Source: Dictyostelium discoideum (lineage: Eukaryota). From it: DNA of 5,179 nucleotides. Positions 1-5,179 of the stretch are shown here, in pieces. The stretch spans positions 1-5,179 of the forward strand of contig CH709174.1 of assembly GCA_000004695.1 (NCBI GenBank), written 5' to 3'. The notes below the pieces were generated by a model. That model was not told the origin of the DNA. It saw only the letters and a program-made list of their open reading frames with translations, and did not search any database. The position numbers and the translations under genes are program-made. How positions within the stretch are numbered: position 1 is the stretch's first letter; each line of letters begins with the position of its first letter.

Positions 1-163
1 TTGTCTCCTCAAAAAGCCCGAAGTAGTCGGTGGCTAACCACAGCCCAACTCACCTTTTGCTCAGGATTTACCCTAAAGGCTATTAACTTTATAACCTCAT
101 CTTTGAGTGCGATTAGCTTTCCTTTTAAACCAGCAAGCTTTCTTGGGGAGCAACAATCTAGTT

Positions 164-955
164 TTAAAAGTTTCTTATTTCCTTGATGACACTTTTCTTC
201 TTTTCTTTGGGAACAAGAAGCTTCATTGATTTTGAATCGATTTGTAATCCGAGAAATGTAATTGATTGAGTTGGTTCAAGAACAATCTTTTCTAGATTCA
301 GCTTGAAACCTAGTTTGACAAGTAAGTCCATTGTCTTTTTGAGGTTGGATAAACATTCTTCTTTTGTTGAACCGACGATTAATAGATCGTCCAAGTAAGC
401 GATTACGGACACGTTGATATCTCTCAACATTCGAAGTACATGTCTTAACAACATTGTAAAGATACGAGGAGCTGTCGATAACCCGAACGGCATTGTTTTC
501 CAACGGTAGTGCGAACCTTTCCACACGAAGCGGAATAAGTCTCTGTATTGCGGATCTACTAAAACGTGGAGGTAGGCTTTCTTGATATCGAGTTTTACCA
601 TGTAATAACCTTGTTTGACCATTGATGGTAGATTCTTGATTCCTTCCATCTTGAATGATTGGTTGTTGATGTAAGTGTTTAACCTTTTTAGATCGAGAAC
701 TGGACGATGTAGATTCGTTCCAGGTTTTGGAACCGTAAACACGTTGGAGTAAAAAACGCGCTTTGAATAACGGTTTGGAAGTACTTGTTCGATAGCATCG
801 TCTAATAACAAGTCTTGTACTTCCTTTGTGATGCAATCTGATTTCGGACCCTCTGGAATTGAAATCGGAATTGGGTTTGGCATCGGCTTGAAATTTGGAA
901 GTAAATGGATTTTTAATCCATTTACGACCTCTTGACAAAAGTTTGGAAGACCCAA
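164..955 (-). CDS. Reverse transcriptase domain of a retroelement pol ORF. RT blocks 1-7 are all present. The ORF ends at a premature stop (KEIRNF*) and the reading continues in another frame below position 164.
   Basis: The translation contains the canonical RT motifs FTVPKPGTNLHRPVLDLKRLN, KLDIKKAYLHV, MPFGLSTAPRIFT, the YXDD box VIAYLDDLLIVG, LVKLGFKLNLEK and ITFLGLQID. The frame differs from the upstream gag-like ORF, which is the usual gag/pol frameshift arrangement. Confidence 0.85.
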   Translation of the reverse strand: MGLPNFCQEVVNGLKIHLLPNFKPMPNPIPISIPEGPKSDCITKEVQDLLLDDAIEQVLPNRYSKRVFYSNVFTVPKPGTNLHRPVLDLKRLNTYINNQSFKMEGIKNLPSMVKQGYYMVKLDIKKAYLHVLVDPQYRDLFRFVWKGSHYRWKTMPFGLSTAPRIFTMLLRHVLRMLRDINVSVIAYLDDLLIVGSTKEECLSNLKKTMDLLVKLGFKLNLEKIVLEPTQSITFLGLQIDSKSMKLLVPKEKKKSVIKEIRNF

Positions 956-1005
956 TTCTTTCCAAACTTGTTTGTGGTGGAACAGACGTCCACCTACTGG
1001 TAAGT

Positions 1006-2007
1006 TTACTTCTTGTTCTTCTGAAAACGGTTGTTGGTACCGTTGGCAGACTTGGTATTGTTGCTACCTGATGCAACATTACTTGGTGACCCATTGAAGT
1101 TGTTAGATCGGCCATTACTCCCACTACTGGATTTACTATTACTACTGTTTCCTGTAGTGTTATTACCACTTGAGTTAACTGATTTCTTGACATTGGACTT
1201 GGAATGATAATTCAATTTTAAAAATGATTGTTTAGCTTCGTTGTTCTTTCTGATTGACTTGGCTAGCTTTCTTACACGTTCAGTTTCAGTTTCATCAAAC
1301 ATCTTTGGTGTATCCTTGATCTTAATTGGTAAGAGTACTTCAGAACCATAGATTTCTTTAGCGATGTTGTTACGACGGACACGACTAAGCGATGCTTGAG
1401 CATTAACGGCTAAGATGATTGCACTCTGAGTTAAGTAACTAATAAGTTCTACATCGACATTAGAGCTATCAGATGATAACATACTTGATATGAGAAGCAA
1501 AGGTTTTAAGCTATCGTTGATTCGCTTTTCGACAATCAACAAGTCAGTATCATTGTTCTTGACGTTGGATGATACAGTAATACCTTCAGGTGTACCGAAT
1601 GGAGCGACATTCACTTGGAAGTTAGATGGAAAGTTGAATACTTTATTCAATTCGGATATCTCATCTTTCTTGAGGATACATTCTTCTTCGACGAGTAAAC
1701 CTTGATTGTTAACCATATGTTTGTACTGACCAAGTAAGGTATCGGATAATTGATAATCGGTTGGAACATCGACATTGTTACTTGATTCATCTTCACTTTG
1801 TTCATTCTCGGTGTCAGAGTTATCATGAGAAGGTTGGCTACGTGAATTAGATGAGAACATAGGTTCTTTCATGAATCTTGTAAAGGCTAAGGAAAGGTTG
1901 TTGATTTGATCCTCCATTGATTTCATTCTTAAATCAAAGGATTCAGAACTATTAAAGGCAGAGGTACTACTACTAGAGGCTTCATTATTATTAACAGTGG
2001 TAGACAT
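1006..2007 (-). CDS. Gag-like ORF1 of the retroelement. It has no CCHC zinc knuckle and ends in an Asn/Ser/Gly-rich low-complexity tail.
   Basis: A 333-aa ORF lies immediately 5' of the RT on the same strand, in a different frame. Its C-terminus is basic and low-complexity (NSSGNNTTGNSSNSKSSSGSNGRSNNFNGSPSNVASGSNNTKSANG...RFQKNKK). This composition is typical of dictyostelid proteins, and the absence of a CCHC motif is consistent with a DIRS-type Gag. Confidence 0.6.
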   Translation of the reverse strand: MSTTVNNNEASSSSTSAFNSSESFDLRMKSMEDQINNLSLAFTRFMKEPMFSSNSRSQPSHDNSDTENEQSEDESSNNVDVPTDYQLSDTLLGQYKHMVNNQGLLVEEECILKKDEISELNKVFNFPSNFQVNVAPFGTPEGITVSSNVKNNDTDLLIVEKRINDSLKPLLLISSMLSSDSSNVDVELISYLTQSAIILAVNAQASLSRVRRNNIAKEIYGSEVLLPIKIKDTPKMFDETETERVRKLAKSIRKNNEAKQSFLKLNYHSKSNVKKSVNSSGNNTTGNSSNSKSSSGSNGRSNNFNGSPSNVASGSNNTKSANGTNNRFQKNKK

Positions 2008-2088
2008 ATGTTGATATCTAAAATTATAATATGAGAAAAATAATAATATTAAAAATTAATAAAGAGAAATAATTATTTGTATAAAATT

Positions 2089-2099
2089 TGTGTGTGTGT
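2089..2099. repeat. (TG)5 microsatellite
   Basis: The run tgtgtgtgtgt is seen directly in the sequence. Confidence 0.9.
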
Positions 2100-2220
2100 A
2101 TCTTAAATATTTATAGGAGGAATTCCCAAATAAAATAAATCAAATTGTTTTAGTTTTTAGTGCCACTATTTATACGTTTTATTTTCTTAAAAATTTCGCA
2201 AAACTCAAAAAAATAAGTGT

Positions 2221-2326
2221 TTTCGACCCTTCACAACTTTGTGCATTGTGTCGGTTCGGAATTTTTATTTTTTTCGACCTTGCACAATTATCGCGTCATT
2301 GTACCGGTTCGAAATTTTTACTTTTC
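2221..2326. repeat. Two tandem, imperfect ~52-bp repeats within the putative terminal-repeat region
   Basis: tttcgacccttcacaactttgtgcattgtgtcggttcggaatttttattttt is followed by tttcgaccttgcacaattatcgcgtcattgtaccggttcgaaatttttacttttc, with roughly 80% identity. A third partial start, tttcgaaaa, follows at 2326. Confidence 0.8.
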
Positions 2327-2348
2327 TTTCGAAAATTTTTTATTCTTC

Positions 2349-2366
2349 GAATGTTCTAGAACATTC
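2349..2366. promoter_or_regulatory. Perfect 18-bp palindrome gaatgttctagaacattc, which is four contiguous alternating nGAAn/nTTCn pentamers (a heat-shock-element consensus array)
   Basis: Read in 5-bp units, cGAAt gTTCt aGAAc aTTCt gives four consecutive perfect pentamers. The site lies ~340 bp upstream of the retroelement ORF1 start on the minus strand. Confidence 0.7.
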
Positions 2367-2389
2367 TAAAAAATTATCTTAAATATTTG
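2349..2389. repeat. Left copy of a 41-bp inverted repeat (IR-L)
   Basis: gaatgttctagaacattctaaaaaattatcttaaatatttg matches the reverse complement of 4403-4443 at 39 of 41 positions. Confidence 0.9.
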
Positions 2390-2587
2390 GGAAATTCAAA
2401 TAAATAAATGTTATTCATAATATATATATATATGATAATATAAATTCATAATCTGAAGCCATTACAACCCATTATTGATGAACTTTCTAAGAAGCACTAC
2501 AGTAAGTAGTTCTTTTTGACAAAGGTCTTCGATAATATGAAATACCAAGGGATTTTTCTAGGTTCGTTTAATTAAAGAGGACCTATC

Positions 2588-2692
2588 ATGCAAAACACCA
2601 ACGCGGAAAAACTTCAACAAGAAGTATATCAGCATTCGAATATTAATTCATGCGACCCACCAAACTTACTAAATAGACTCCGGCTTCCTTGA
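2588..2692 (+). CDS. Small 34-aa ORF (MQNTNAEKLQQEVYQHSNINSCDPPNLLNRLRLP) preceded by a strong Shine-Dalgarno-like motif. Function unknown.
   Basis: AAAGAGGA at 2574-2581 lies 6 nt upstream of the ATG at 2588. The ORF sits upstream of the ATP-grasp-like ORF. It is too short to appear in the ORF track. Confidence 0.3.
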   Translation: MQNTNAEKLQQEVYQHSNINSCDPPNLLNRLRLP

Positions 2693-2809
2693 GTCGTTTA
2701 GCCAGCGTGATTGATTATATCCGTCAATACGAAGCAAAAACCGTTGCGTAACTATTTGGTCAGAGTGGGAAAACAGCTCTGACTTTATGCCAGCCTATGG
2801 AGTAAAGTC

Positions 2810-3298
2810 ATGAAAATCATTGTACAAGCACATGGCACAAACGTATACCATCGGGAAGAACAAAAAGTCCATGATTATGTTAAAGACTTTATTCCGTTGG
2901 GTTTATCGCAGCTAAAAAAGAAAACTGATCTCATTGAATCCGCCGTTTGGTTATGTGAGGTCGTGGAGTGGGGTAGCGAATGGCAGTTCTACTTACAGGA
3001 TGATGTAGTTGTCTACAAGGCACCGTATAAAGGAGCCACAAAACCAGACATCCGTATTGTAGATGACATGATACAGAGGCTCCAGTACTGTTCTACTGGA
3101 CCTAATACCTACGCTTTAGATGTAGATGTACTAAGTTCAGGTAAAACTGCATTAATAGAAATGAATGATGCATTTGCTGTCAGCGCCGAGACATTCCCGC
3201 AGACATCTATACTGAATGGTTATTCTCTCGCTGGAATTCGTAAATGGCGTAATCCAGGAGTTTTCAGGTCTACATCATCAAGGTGTAGATGTGAATAA
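2810..3298 (+). CDS. ATP-grasp fold protein (C-terminal catalytic-domain-like), 162 aa. It may be a truncated or short ATP-grasp ligase.
   Basis: The segment YALDVDVLSSGKTALIEMNDAFAVSAE resembles the conserved ATP-grasp C-terminal motif (..GVDxx...G...vlEvN..P..), and it is preceded by an E..R-containing beta region. GGAG lies 7 nt upstream of the ATG. The stop codon of an upstream reading frame overlaps this RBS. Codon usage is enterobacterial or phage-like. Confidence 0.55.
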   Translation: MKIIVQAHGTNVYHREEQKVHDYVKDFIPLGLSQLKKKTDLIESAVWLCEVVEWGSEWQFYLQDDVVVYKAPYKGATKPDIRIVDDMIQRLQYCSTGPNTYALDVDVLSSGKTALIEMNDAFAVSAETFPQTSILNGYSLAGIRKWRNPGVFRSTSSRCRCE

Positions 3299-3330
3299 AA
3301 CCCCCTGTAATAACTGAAAAAGGAAATACC

Positions 3331-3624
3331 ATGTCCGATGTAATCGCACAACAAAACCAACATGCTGTTCAGCAGTATCCAAATGAAATTCCATCAGGAA
3401 TTACATTGTTCATCGAGTTTGTTCATAGCGCTCTGGGAAATCTGCAAGAGAAATCCTTGCTGCCGGACCTGGTACCCACTACTCGCGGTGTAGTCGTTCG
3501 TCAGGAAAACCAAAACCCACTGAATACGTTGTCTGCGGTTGCCCCAACCGTCCTGAACATTTACGGTAACCAAAGGCCATCGCCCTGTGTGAATGCCGCA
3601 CCGCATCTGCTCTATCTGGCCTAA
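3331..3624 (+). CDS. Hypothetical protein, 97 aa. The same frame stays open through two in-frame TAA codons as far as 3930, so this may be a nonsense-interrupted pseudogene or a longer gene.
   Basis: AAGGAA lies 5 nt upstream of the ATG. Codon choice is strongly ctg/ccg/cgt/gcc. The frame continues open from 3625 to 3780 with the same codon bias after the TAA at 3622-3624. Confidence 0.45.
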   Translation: MSDVIAQQNQHAVQQYPNEIPSGITLFIEFVHSALGNLQEKSLLPDLVPTTRGVVVRQENQNPLNTLSAVAPTVLNIYGNQRPSPCVNAAPHLLYLA

Positions 3625-3852
3625 GATCTGCTGTGTACCGGTCTGATCGATGCCGAGTGTTTAGCGCTGTATAGCCCGATTCAAACCAACAACACCATCC
3701 CAATACGTTCCCGTCATGCCAAACCTGACTGGATTGTACTGCAGAGTCCAACTACGAAGAACTTATCAAAACTTATCAGGTAACTCAGGACTCTCCGTTC
3801 CGTTAAAATAACTTTATTGCAAGGATTGAAAAAGCTTGATCTTAGTTTAGTT

Positions 3853-4242
3853 ATGGCGTTAGTATTCATGGTTACTGGTTTCGCTACTGATATCACCCAG
3901 CGTGTAGGCTGTGGAATCGAACACTGGTAGTAACTATTTCTCTACAACAACTCAAGGCGAAGAAGTTGCGATCGAGTGTTTGAATAGTACAGTCGTTGCA
4001 AGTATCACTTATGCAGACGGGCGCACCCTCTAAAGGTGATCCTATTGGGGTCTACACGGAAAATGGTGTCTTTGTCTTATCTTGCAAATCGCAGTCCGTT
4101 GCAGTTCGTAAACAGTTCTGGGGATATTATCCAGTCTGCTAAAGGACAATTGCAATTTGCAAGTACCGTGGGTGAGTCCTGCGTGTATTCAGCAACCAGT
4201 CTAGGAAAGTTATTTAAAGACATTGGCTCTAACTGTAATTAA
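3853..4242 (+). pseudogene. Possible decayed gene for a small secreted, Cys-containing protein. A signal-peptide-like N-terminus is followed by short ORFs in successively +1-shifted frames.
   Basis: The sequence (L)KKLDLSLVMALVFMVTGFATD... resembles a signal peptide. Four ORF segments of ~100 nt each (ending at 3930, 4033, 4142 and 4242) run in frames 1, 2, 0 and 1 with plausible peptide sequences, for example GDPIGVYTENGVFVLSCKSQSVAVRKQFWGYYPVC. Overlapping open frames could also arise by chance at this GC content. Confidence 0.25.
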
Positions 4243-4402
4243 CCATTAAGCCGCTCCTTAATTGGGGCTGCTGTTTCACTTGAGGTTATTTTTTATGTTC
4301 TCACACATTGTGGCCATGCACCCTACCTTTATCAATTTCAGAAATCGAAGCGGTTATTGGTCAATATCGTGTTTGCGTACTGTATAACTTTGCCTCTGGT
4401 GA

Positions 4403-4443
4403 CAAATATCTAAGACAATTTTTTAGAATGTTCTAGAACATTC
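4403..4443. repeat. Right copy of the 41-bp inverted repeat (IR-R). Its outer 18 bp (4426-4443) is the same HSE palindrome.
   Basis: The reverse complement of 4403-4443 is gaatgttctagaacattctaaaaaattgtcttagatatttg, which differs from 2349-2389 at 2 positions. Confidence 0.9.
4426..4443. promoter_or_regulatory. Second copy of the perfect HSE palindrome gaatgttctagaacattc
   Basis: aGAAt gTTCt aGAAc aTTCa gives four perfect pentamers. It is identical to 2349-2366. Confidence 0.7.
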
Positions 4444-4459
4444 AAAAAACACAGCGGCT

Positions 4460-4498
4460 TTATAAGTATACTTTATAAGTACTACTTAATAAGTACAC
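4460..4498. repeat. Three tandem ~13-bp units (tttataagtatac / tttataagtactac / ttaataagtacac)
   Basis: The units are seen directly in the sequence. Confidence 0.8.
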
Positions 4499-4536
4499 TT
4501 ATTAATATATATTAATAATTAATTATTATTCTTTAA

Positions 4537-4652
4537 AATGTTTTATATGTGAATTGAACCCGCGACCTCCCTTTTCAGAAGTTCCGAGGTGGGGAATGTT
4601 TTATATGGGAATCGAACCTGCGACCTCCCTTTCCGGAAGTTCCGTTTAGAGG
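4537..4652 (-). repeat. Two tandem 58-bp units, each containing a tRNA 3'-half or B-box-like motif (GGTTCGATTCC on the minus strand). They resemble extra-B-box elements downstream of a tRNA.
   Basis: Units 4537-4594 and 4595-4652 are ~85% identical. The reverse complement of each contains GAGGTCGC(A/G)GGTTC(G/A)ATTC, which matches the T-arm/B-box consensus GGTTCGANTCC. Each unit also carries a GGAAgTTCC inverted repeat. Confidence 0.6.
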
Positions 4653-4660
4653 AAAAAAGT

Positions 4661-4728
4661 TGCATATGGGAATCGAACCCGTGACCTCTTAAATTAAGCT
4701 ATCTCTCTACCATATGAGCTAAATAAGC
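4661..4728 (-). pseudogene. tRNA-derived pseudogene or tRNA-like element. It is followed on the minus strand by T6, a Pol III terminator-like run, at 4654-4659.
   Basis: The minus-strand reading is GCTTATT TA GCTC ATATGGTA GAGA ... CTTAA T TTAAG AGGTC ACGGG TTCGATT CCCAT ATGCA. The D-arm TAGCTCATATGGTAGAG (A14, G18G19 and A21 present), the variable loop AGGTC and the T-arm are all tRNA-like. The anticodon loop is reduced to 1 nt, the acceptor stem does not pair, and the total length is ~68 nt, so this is not a functional tRNA. Confidence 0.5.
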
Positions 4729-4797
4729 TTTTATTATTTTTCAATATTAATAGCTGAAATATTAATGTAAAAAATTTAAAAAAAATAATAAAAAAAA

Positions 4798-4927
4798 TGA
4801 AACTATAAAACATAAATAAAATGATATGTTTTATTTTTTAATTTAAAGTTGTATAAATGTTTGTGAATACACTGAGAAATAATATTCAGAATATTTCTGA
4901 AACTATAAAACATAAAAAAAATGATAT
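4798..4927. repeat. Pair of 30-bp direct repeats (tgaaactataaaacataaa[t/a]aaaatgatat) at 4798-4827 and 4898-4927
   Basis: 29 of 30 positions are identical. The interval between the copies contains a 6-bp-stem inverted repeat, tcagaa tat ttctga, at 4886-4900. Confidence 0.8.
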
Positions 4928-4976
4928 ATTCAGAATAATATAAAGAATAACATAATCTTTCTAAAAAACTTATAAT

Positions 4977-4980
<4 letters not shown>

Positions 4981-5009
<29 letters not shown>

Positions 5010-5179
5010 CCCAAAATATAATGGATCCATTGGGGGTAAAAAACCATGGATTTTTTAAAAAAAATTTAAATATTTTTTGGGGGGGCGAAAAAAATTCCAA
5101 AAAAAAAAAAAAAAAAAAAAATTTTGGGATTTTTTTTTAAACACAAAAAAAAAAAAAAAATTGGGAAATTTTTTTTTTT
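4981..5179. other. Homopolymer-dominated terminal stretch (T30, A22, A16, G7 and others). It probably reflects low sequence quality or an assembly-end artefact.
   Basis: The stretch has T30 at 4981-5010, A22 at 5101-5122, short palindromes aatggatccatt and ccatgg, and no coding potential. The only ORF here, on the minus strand, is poly-Lys read from poly-T. Confidence 0.6.

Follow-up and report, generated by a model that had tools for sequence, protein, structure and literature searches.

Damaged bacteriophage-type DNA between DIRS-1 retrotransposon sequences on an unplaced contig of Dictyostelium discoideum AX4

The DNA considered here, referred to below as the window, is an entire small, unplaced contig of Dictyostelium discoideum AX4 (CH709174.1, 5179 bp). 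Its central part is a foreign block of 1.96 kb, starting at 2446 and ending at 4402, which is bracketed on both sides by sequence of the retrotransposon DIRS-1 and carries the remains of an R2K.2 ATP-grasp gene. Dictyostelium repeat DNA adjoins the block within 1 nt on the left and 0 nt on the right. A first-pass annotation, made from the letters alone, had drawn a block of prokaryotic character from 2568 to 4402; its foreign nature and its right end are upheld, and its start is moved out to 2446. The principal features are as follows (LTR, long terminal repeat; RT, reverse transcriptase; ORF, open reading frame; SD, Shine-Dalgarno).

98–2445, minus strand: 5' part of a DIRS-1 retrotransposon, including the left LTR at about 2135–2445, gag at 1006–2007 and the start of RT at 164–955
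2434–2445, minus strand: natural outer end of the left LTR of DIRS-1 (...GATAATATAAAT), directly adjoining the foreign block
2446–4402, plus strand: foreign bacteriophage-type block, 42.4% GC, CTG-rich, with same-strand ORFs that have SD motifs and are all apparently disrupted
2810–3243, plus strand: R2K.2 ATP-grasp ligase pseudogene, with SD motif GGAG at 2799–2802 and native stop at 3241–3243
2810–3298, plus strand: annotated ORF DDB_G0294348, 162 aa, ending in out-of-frame read-through
4403–4449, plus strand: internal DIRS-1 LTR fragment of 47 nt, corresponding to LTR positions ~59–105 from the outer end and inverted relative to the left LTR

R2K.2 proteins are of the ATP-grasp peptide-ligase type, and phages have been proposed to use them in conflicts with their hosts. 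The ORF at 2810–3298 encodes a product identical to DDB_G0294348 (XP_628723.1, UniProt Q54AM2), which matches the Pfam family R2K_2 (PF18299) with a score of 59.5 bits (E 4.4e-16; gathering cut-off 26.2) and also matches phrog_7313. The window copy covers positions 50–139 of the 147 in PF18299, compared with 1–144 for the intact homologue P0002, which is encoded on the 3.5-kb Logan contig L001. Alignment to intact homologues places an 87-codon in-frame deletion near 2940–2945 in the window copy, and a segment of the form F(I/V)KP...K.FTG, found in 6/6 intact homologues, is deleted from it. The R2K.2 clade is named for two lysines conserved in a RAGNYA domain (PMC4431377). As the clade is defined, the deleted segment carries both of these lysines, their catalytic assignment being read from the motif and not from a structure. 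A conserved arginine is also gone, since SEWR in 6/6 homologues is SEWQ in the window copy, with glutamine in its place. The C-terminal ExN metal-binding motif is kept, and IEMND of the window aligns with VEVND, VEMND and VEIND. A frameshift lies near 3183; tblastx against L001 changes frame between 3181 and 3190, and the conserved R2K C-terminus (DIPADIYTEWLFSRW, DIPADIYTEWLFSRWNS) is found in another frame of the window. Therefore, the last ~36 residues of the annotated protein are read-through. With the core segment and both lysines lost, the arginine replaced and the frame shifted, the R2K remnant is, as judged from these alignments, dead.

The Ka/Ks of the R2K copy against L001 is about 0.15 and synonymous sites are saturated, which indicates that the gene was under selection for nearly all of its divergence. 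Differences from GC to AT and from AT to GC number 50 and 54, respectively, without an AT-ward asymmetry, and this balance argues that the block has not long been exposed to AT-biased decay (the non-coding flanks have 15–24% GC). DDB_G0294348 is a phage-derived pseudogene fragment, or possibly a contaminant. Its entry Q54AM2, named 'ATP-grasp domain-containing protein', should be left out of any count of Dictyostelium proteins or of eukaryotic R2K enzymes.

P0002 is the sole relative of the 162-aa product, besides itself, among 5.8 billion proteins, with 62% amino acid identity; at the DNA level the two genes are 68–74% identical. The genes of L001 match PHROG families, and one of them shares 66–68% identity with genes from Salmonella phage SA002 and from Erwinia phage pEa_SNUABM_37/48, so that L001 appears to be a jumbo-phage-like contig. 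More distant R2K homologues, with 30–40% identity, are found in jumbo phages of Klebsiella, Erwinia, Burkholderia and Pseudomonas. R2K is the only gene common to the block and L001, and the R2K gene is missing from SA002-type phages. Orphan genes are common in the variable accessory regions of jumbo phages, and the sharing of R2K alone, together with its absence from SA002-type phages, fits such a region. Both R2K genes are followed on their 3' side by a 97-codon ORF (L001 2309–2602, window 3331–3624); the two are equal in length and unrelated in sequence, and this apparent synteny was dismissed as a coincidence. Searches of viral, bacterial-genome and metagenome contigs with automatic and hand-made degenerate patterns gave no closer R2K relative with its flanks. 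No amoebozoan homologue of the R2K product was found apart from the contig's own annotation, nor an orthologue in other dictyostelids. The first-pass annotation had left transfer, contamination and an artefactual join as sources of prokaryote-type DNA, and had named amoebozoan proteins with matching codon usage, or a composition equal to that of the flanks, as findings that would speak against it. Neither was found, and homology (R2K_2 and the phage-like relative) supports its proposal and confirms a bacteriophage-type source. A foreign origin of bacteriophage type can be regarded as secure on this evidence, and the donor was probably a tailed, enterobacterial jumbo-type bacteriophage.

The composition of the block agrees with a foreign origin. 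Its GC content is 42.4% over 2446–4402, with a peak of 52% at 3501–3700, compared with 24% in the LTR (2135–2446) and 22.7% on the right (4403–5179). The abrupt rise reported earlier, from roughly 20% to the mid-40s, therefore describes the immediate flanks, and the sharp contrast is limited to these, as the far left flank of DIRS-1 coding sequence (91–2007) has 37.5% GC. The reported contrast in codon usage is real: CTG makes up 13/30 leucine codons in the block ORFs and 1/64 in the DIRS-1 ORFs, and CAG makes up 9/18 and 3/19 glutamine codons, respectively. At the nucleotide level the block matched nothing in the collections of phages, E. coli and plasmids, so that it is not a common vector, host or known-phage contaminant.

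The layout of the block is that of closely spaced, co-directional ORFs behind SD sites, as expected of a bacterial or phage operon. The SD motifs reported before three starts are at the positions and spacings claimed, namely AAAGAGGA at 2574–2581, 6 nt 5' of ATG 2588; GGAG at 2799–2802, 7 nt 5' of ATG 2810; and AAGGAA at 3320–3325, 5 nt 5' of ATG 3331. A fourth case is GAGG at 4282–4285 before ATG 4295. SD-like motifs precede 5 of the 37 plus-strand ATGs of the block, the starts of the two longest ORFs among these, and the chance of finding them at the three named starts is about 0.0025 by a post-hoc estimate. The upstream stop said to overlap the next ribosome-binding site is present as TAA 2803–2805 and abuts GGAG 2799–2802. 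The layout and SD sites of the proposed three-ORF operon thus stand, but its genes are not intact and translatable: the R2K gene has its deletion and frameshift, and every other frame appears damaged. The first ORF, from ATG 2588, has only 34 codons. A consensus scan found 3 sigma-70 promoter-like sites, compared with 4.6 in shuffled sequences, and 2 terminator-like sites, compared with 1.5, neither kind of site being enriched over the shuffles. A perfect TTGACA hexamer is present at 2514–2519, 70 nt upstream of ATG 2588; it has no -10 element at proper spacing and was uncalled in the promoter scan.

The remaining features of the block are given below.

2447–2509, plus strand: possible 3' gene tail (HNLKPLQPIIDELSKKHYSK*), open to TAG 2507–2509, with CTG and CCC codons and no homologue
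2588–2805, plus strand: gene A, a small-gene remnant with SD motif AAAGAGGA, read in a three-frame translation
3331–3783, plus strand: gene C, an orphan remnant with SD motif AAGGAA at 3320–3325 and a 97-codon ORF to TAA 3622–3624
3911–4242, plus strand: gene D, three overlapping open stretches in successive frames, read in a three-frame translation
4253–4268, plus strand: weak hairpin of terminator-like form following gene D; such sites are not in excess of the shuffled expectation
4295–4402, plus strand: start of a further small ORF with SD motif GAGG at 4282–4285, cut by the right junction

For the orphan frames, interruption by stops or frame changes is suggested by their layout, as homologues are lacking. 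The strongest case is gene C (GC1/2/3 of 0.62/0.37/0.49). Past TAA 3622–3624 its frame stays open for 52 further codons of donor type up to a stop at 3781–3783, and since this extension has no possible start codon of its own, the TAA is probably a nonsense mutation. Gene A may have suffered a frame shift near 2680–2690, followed by an in-frame TAA at 2749–2751 and a final TAA at 2803–2805. That gene D is a single gene with two frameshifts is speculative, and 2447–2509 might be the tail of a gene cut by the insertion of DIRS-1, which is unproven. No relatives of 2588–2805, 3331–3783, 3911–4242 or 4295–4402 were found by tblastn on phages, PHROGs, Pfam and a viral-contig scan, by a word index of the 5.8 billion proteins, or by exhaustive HMMER over 1.84 billion representatives. 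HMMER hits to P0123 and P0124 were set aside as spurious, since these are tandem-repeat, low-complexity proteins. Of the two proteins that the first-pass annotation had proposed to compare, the 162-aa product thus has homologues and the 97-aa product has no real relatives.

In the left flank, the minus strand of 98–2445 has 96–97% nucleotide identity to numerous copies of DIRS-1 from three independent assemblies of D. discoideum, at loci that encode gag, RVT_1 and Phage_integrase (the tyrosine recombinase). RVT_1 is found in the flank itself with E 5e-28, and the gag of the window is 97–98% identical to high-copy D. discoideum proteins. The flank is therefore DIRS-1, represented in the window by gag, the first part of RT and the left LTR alone; the alignment ends at 98 in every copy compared, where the element is truncated inside the RT region. 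A second annotated product of the contig, P0030 (DDB_G0294346, 541 aa), joins gag and RT. Over 2.35 kb, the DIRS-1 part shows 27 private substitutions, together with a few indels likewise private to it. Other copies range from 7 to 55, so that this is divergence of an ordinary degree between copies and points to ordinary sequence quality in the body of the contig and not to gross read error. The RT frame (164–955, minus strand) ends prematurely at the place of a 1-nt deletion, private to this copy, in an A-run at about 165.

Seven other full-length copies terminate at the same nucleotide as the left LTR and then run into mutually unrelated flanks. Position 2445 is therefore the natural outer terminus of the element. 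Outer ends differ between the two sides of the element: left-type LTRs stop at ...GATAATATAAAT, whereas right-type LTRs (L002, L005, L006 and L007) have ...TTTAATATAAAA and extend 28 nt further (TATAATTTAATAAATTAAATTTTTAATT) before their flanks diverge. On the right of the block, 4403–4449 matches LTRs in all DIRS-1 loci and forms an inverted repeat with 2343–2389 (91%). These 47-nt inverted repeats were considered as terminal repeats of a DNA transposon and rejected, since both are internal parts of the LTR and the left LTR continues for another 56 nt before reaching its natural end. A perfect 18-nt palindrome of heat-shock-element type (GAATGTTCTAGAACATTC, with nGAAnnTTCn repeats) is present at 2349–2366 in the LTR and at 4427–4444 in the isolated fragment. 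Its place in the LTR fits the reported stress-inducible promoter activity of DIRS-1 LTRs.

Other parts of the flanks are less easily assigned. Window 1–97 (44% GC) has no match in about 70 kb of DIRS-cluster loci, and the DNA joined to DIRS-1 there is possibly another repeat or further foreign DNA. On the minus strand of 4537–4735 there are three tandem units of 58–61 nt each with sequence like a tRNA T-arm or B box (GGTTCGATTCC type), the third of which reaches into a D-arm-like stretch. ARAGORN and Rfam called no tRNA genes in the right flank, and the units look like tRNA-derived fragments or external B boxes. The last part of the window, 4960–5179, consists of long A/T homopolymer runs broken by short runs of G or C (e.g. 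ttttttgggggggcgaaaaaaa).

Given the phage-type origin of the block, the damage to its R2K gene, the DIRS-1 flanks and the left junction at a natural LTR terminus, the choice between integration and artefact rests on the geometry of the junctions, which thereby helps to decide among transfer, contamination and an artefactual join. A natural terminus flush with the block, an LTR fragment on the opposite side and dead cargo favour an event inside the amoeba nucleus. We consider it moderately probable that the block is a random fragment of a phage genome that was genuinely integrated in a DIRS-1 cluster of D. discoideum (the AX4 lineage), recently and without function. Ingested bacterial or phage DNA would have been captured where a DIRS-1 LTR had broken, with the 47-nt piece of that LTR remaining on the right, and a later DIRS-1 copy would have integrated into the foreign DNA and truncated the left end of the block. 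On the mutational time scale the capture would be recent, with the organisation of the donor retained in co-directional small genes, SD sites, stops next to the following ribosome-binding site and donor codons; some of the damage to the genes may be older than the capture or have arisen with it. A more specific version, in which jumbo-phage DNA was recently captured in a centromeric DIRS-1 array and DIRS-1 then integrated directly into it, is proposed here as a tentative idea that we would not yet bet on.

Several observations weigh against integration, and most of them would also be expected of a cloning or assembly artefact, in which phage or bacterial DNA contaminating the Sanger shotgun libraries became joined to Dictyostelium reads with DIRS-1 by co-ligation or mis-assembly, and in which the block would never have belonged to the genome of the amoeba. 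The contig is short (5.2 kb), unplaced and repeat-rich, and the presence of the block rests on this single contig, of which 4960–5179 looks like the low-quality end of a Sanger read and not like reliable sequence. From the LTR end to the first gene start there are 142 nt (2446–2587, 33% GC) that have no homologue and can be assigned to neither genome, and a chimeric join may lie within them. Neither the 162-aa nor the 97-aa product was found in any other assembly of the protein collection, or outside AX4, although the collection includes several annotated D. discoideum assemblies with many ORFs called in DIRS clusters; this absence is weak evidence, since Dictyostelium is thinly covered there, with a Logan source for only 1/120 gag clusters, and since annotation may pass over small ORFs. 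Heavy damage to the genes without amelioration towards the AT-rich host is also slightly awkward for a captured fragment, as it needs a defective donor such as a cryptic prophage, or damage during the capture. An artefact, however, has to account for host repeats on both sides, which call for a three-fragment chimera or two independent chimeras, and for a left join exactly at a natural LTR terminus, which random ligation would hit with a chance of about 1 in several thousand for each element. Intact genes would be expected of a contaminating phage that was live, but the R2K gene of the block has lost 87 codons and its catalytic residues, and the block does not match the usual library contaminants (E. 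coli, known phages and plasmids). An artefact is thus the chief competitor of a recent integration and, in our view, an unlikely one.

The damage could also have preceded the transfer if the donor was the chromosome of a bacterium, eaten as food or living as a symbiont, with a decaying cryptic prophage or a defence island. Genes that were already dead at the time of transfer would explain how heavy damage can go together with an unameliorated composition, and the R2K.2 family is sporadic in bacteria as well as in phages (PMC4431377). However, all detectable relatives are in phage genomes or on the phage-like contig, and scans with two pattern sets over 185,579 species genomes of bacteria and archaea gave no match, so that we regard such a donor as improbable. 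The least probable explanation, which is close to refuted, is that DDB_G0294348 is a horizontally acquired gene that was domesticated and functions in Dictyostelium. It is annotated as protein-coding, has a significant Pfam match and keeps the ExN motif, but it lacks both defining lysines and the conserved arginine, ends in out-of-frame read-through, has a bacterial SD site and codon usage without any sign of adaptation, has no orthologue in other dictyostelids or in other D. discoideum annotations, and sits in DIRS-1 debris.

No paper mentioning DDB_G0294348 or this insertion was found in the literature. If the recent integration favoured above is real, the contig would record, as a rare and datable case, how phage DNA entered the nucleus of a eukaryote through a phagocytic lifestyle, came to rest among retrotransposon remains and decayed undomesticated, and it would be useful for comparing the frequency of DNA uptake with the rarity of a resulting gene. 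If the tentative centromeric version is true, DIRS-1 can target non-DIRS DNA, heterochromatic arrays are a sink in which ingested prokaryotic or viral DNA decays, and the transfer ratchet known as 'you are what you eat' can be observed directly at an early step.

DIRS-1 clusters are formed by nested insertions of this tyrosine-recombinase retrotransposon at the chromosome ends and centromeres of D. discoideum, and DIRS-1 is reported to prefer other DIRS-1 sequences as insertion sites (PMC3950715). A truncated copy that ends at a natural LTR terminus, along with a small inverted piece of LTR, is typical mosaic debris of such clusters; unlike in these, the sequence abutting the LTR terminus here is not DIRS-1 and is apparently foreign. 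In comparison with R2K.2 of jumbo phages (PF18299; Erwinia phage AH06 gp203, Klebsiella phage YC1 and Pseudomonas phage Noxifer; Burroughs, Zhang and Aravind 2015, PMC4431377), the domain match is significant, the ATP-grasp module aligns over its C-terminal half, with the SEW.Y strand and ExN among the aligned parts, and the SD context is phage-style. In contrast, the window copy is without the RAGNYA segment and the two lysines, has glutamine for arginine, is frameshifted, is only 30–40% identical to the named phages (62% to the uncultured relative) and lies on a eukaryotic contig. With contaminant or chimeric draft contigs the window shares its small size, unplaced state, foreign GC content and codons and lack of support found in other assemblies, whereas host repeats on both sides, a join at a transposon terminus and dead foreign genes set it apart. 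It is an instance of an already known kind, that of prokaryotic or viral DNA in a eukaryotic assembly ending as a pseudogene. Transfers from bacteria or phages to eukaryotes that end in this way are known from the 'you are what you eat' ratchet and, for example, from Wolbachia DNA in arthropod genomes. Although the donor here is phage-like and the DNA amounts to only ~2 kb on a single unplaced contig, the block resembles such transfers, including the Wolbachia insertions, in being DNA of donor composition in a repeat-rich eukaryotic region, with its genes no longer functional.

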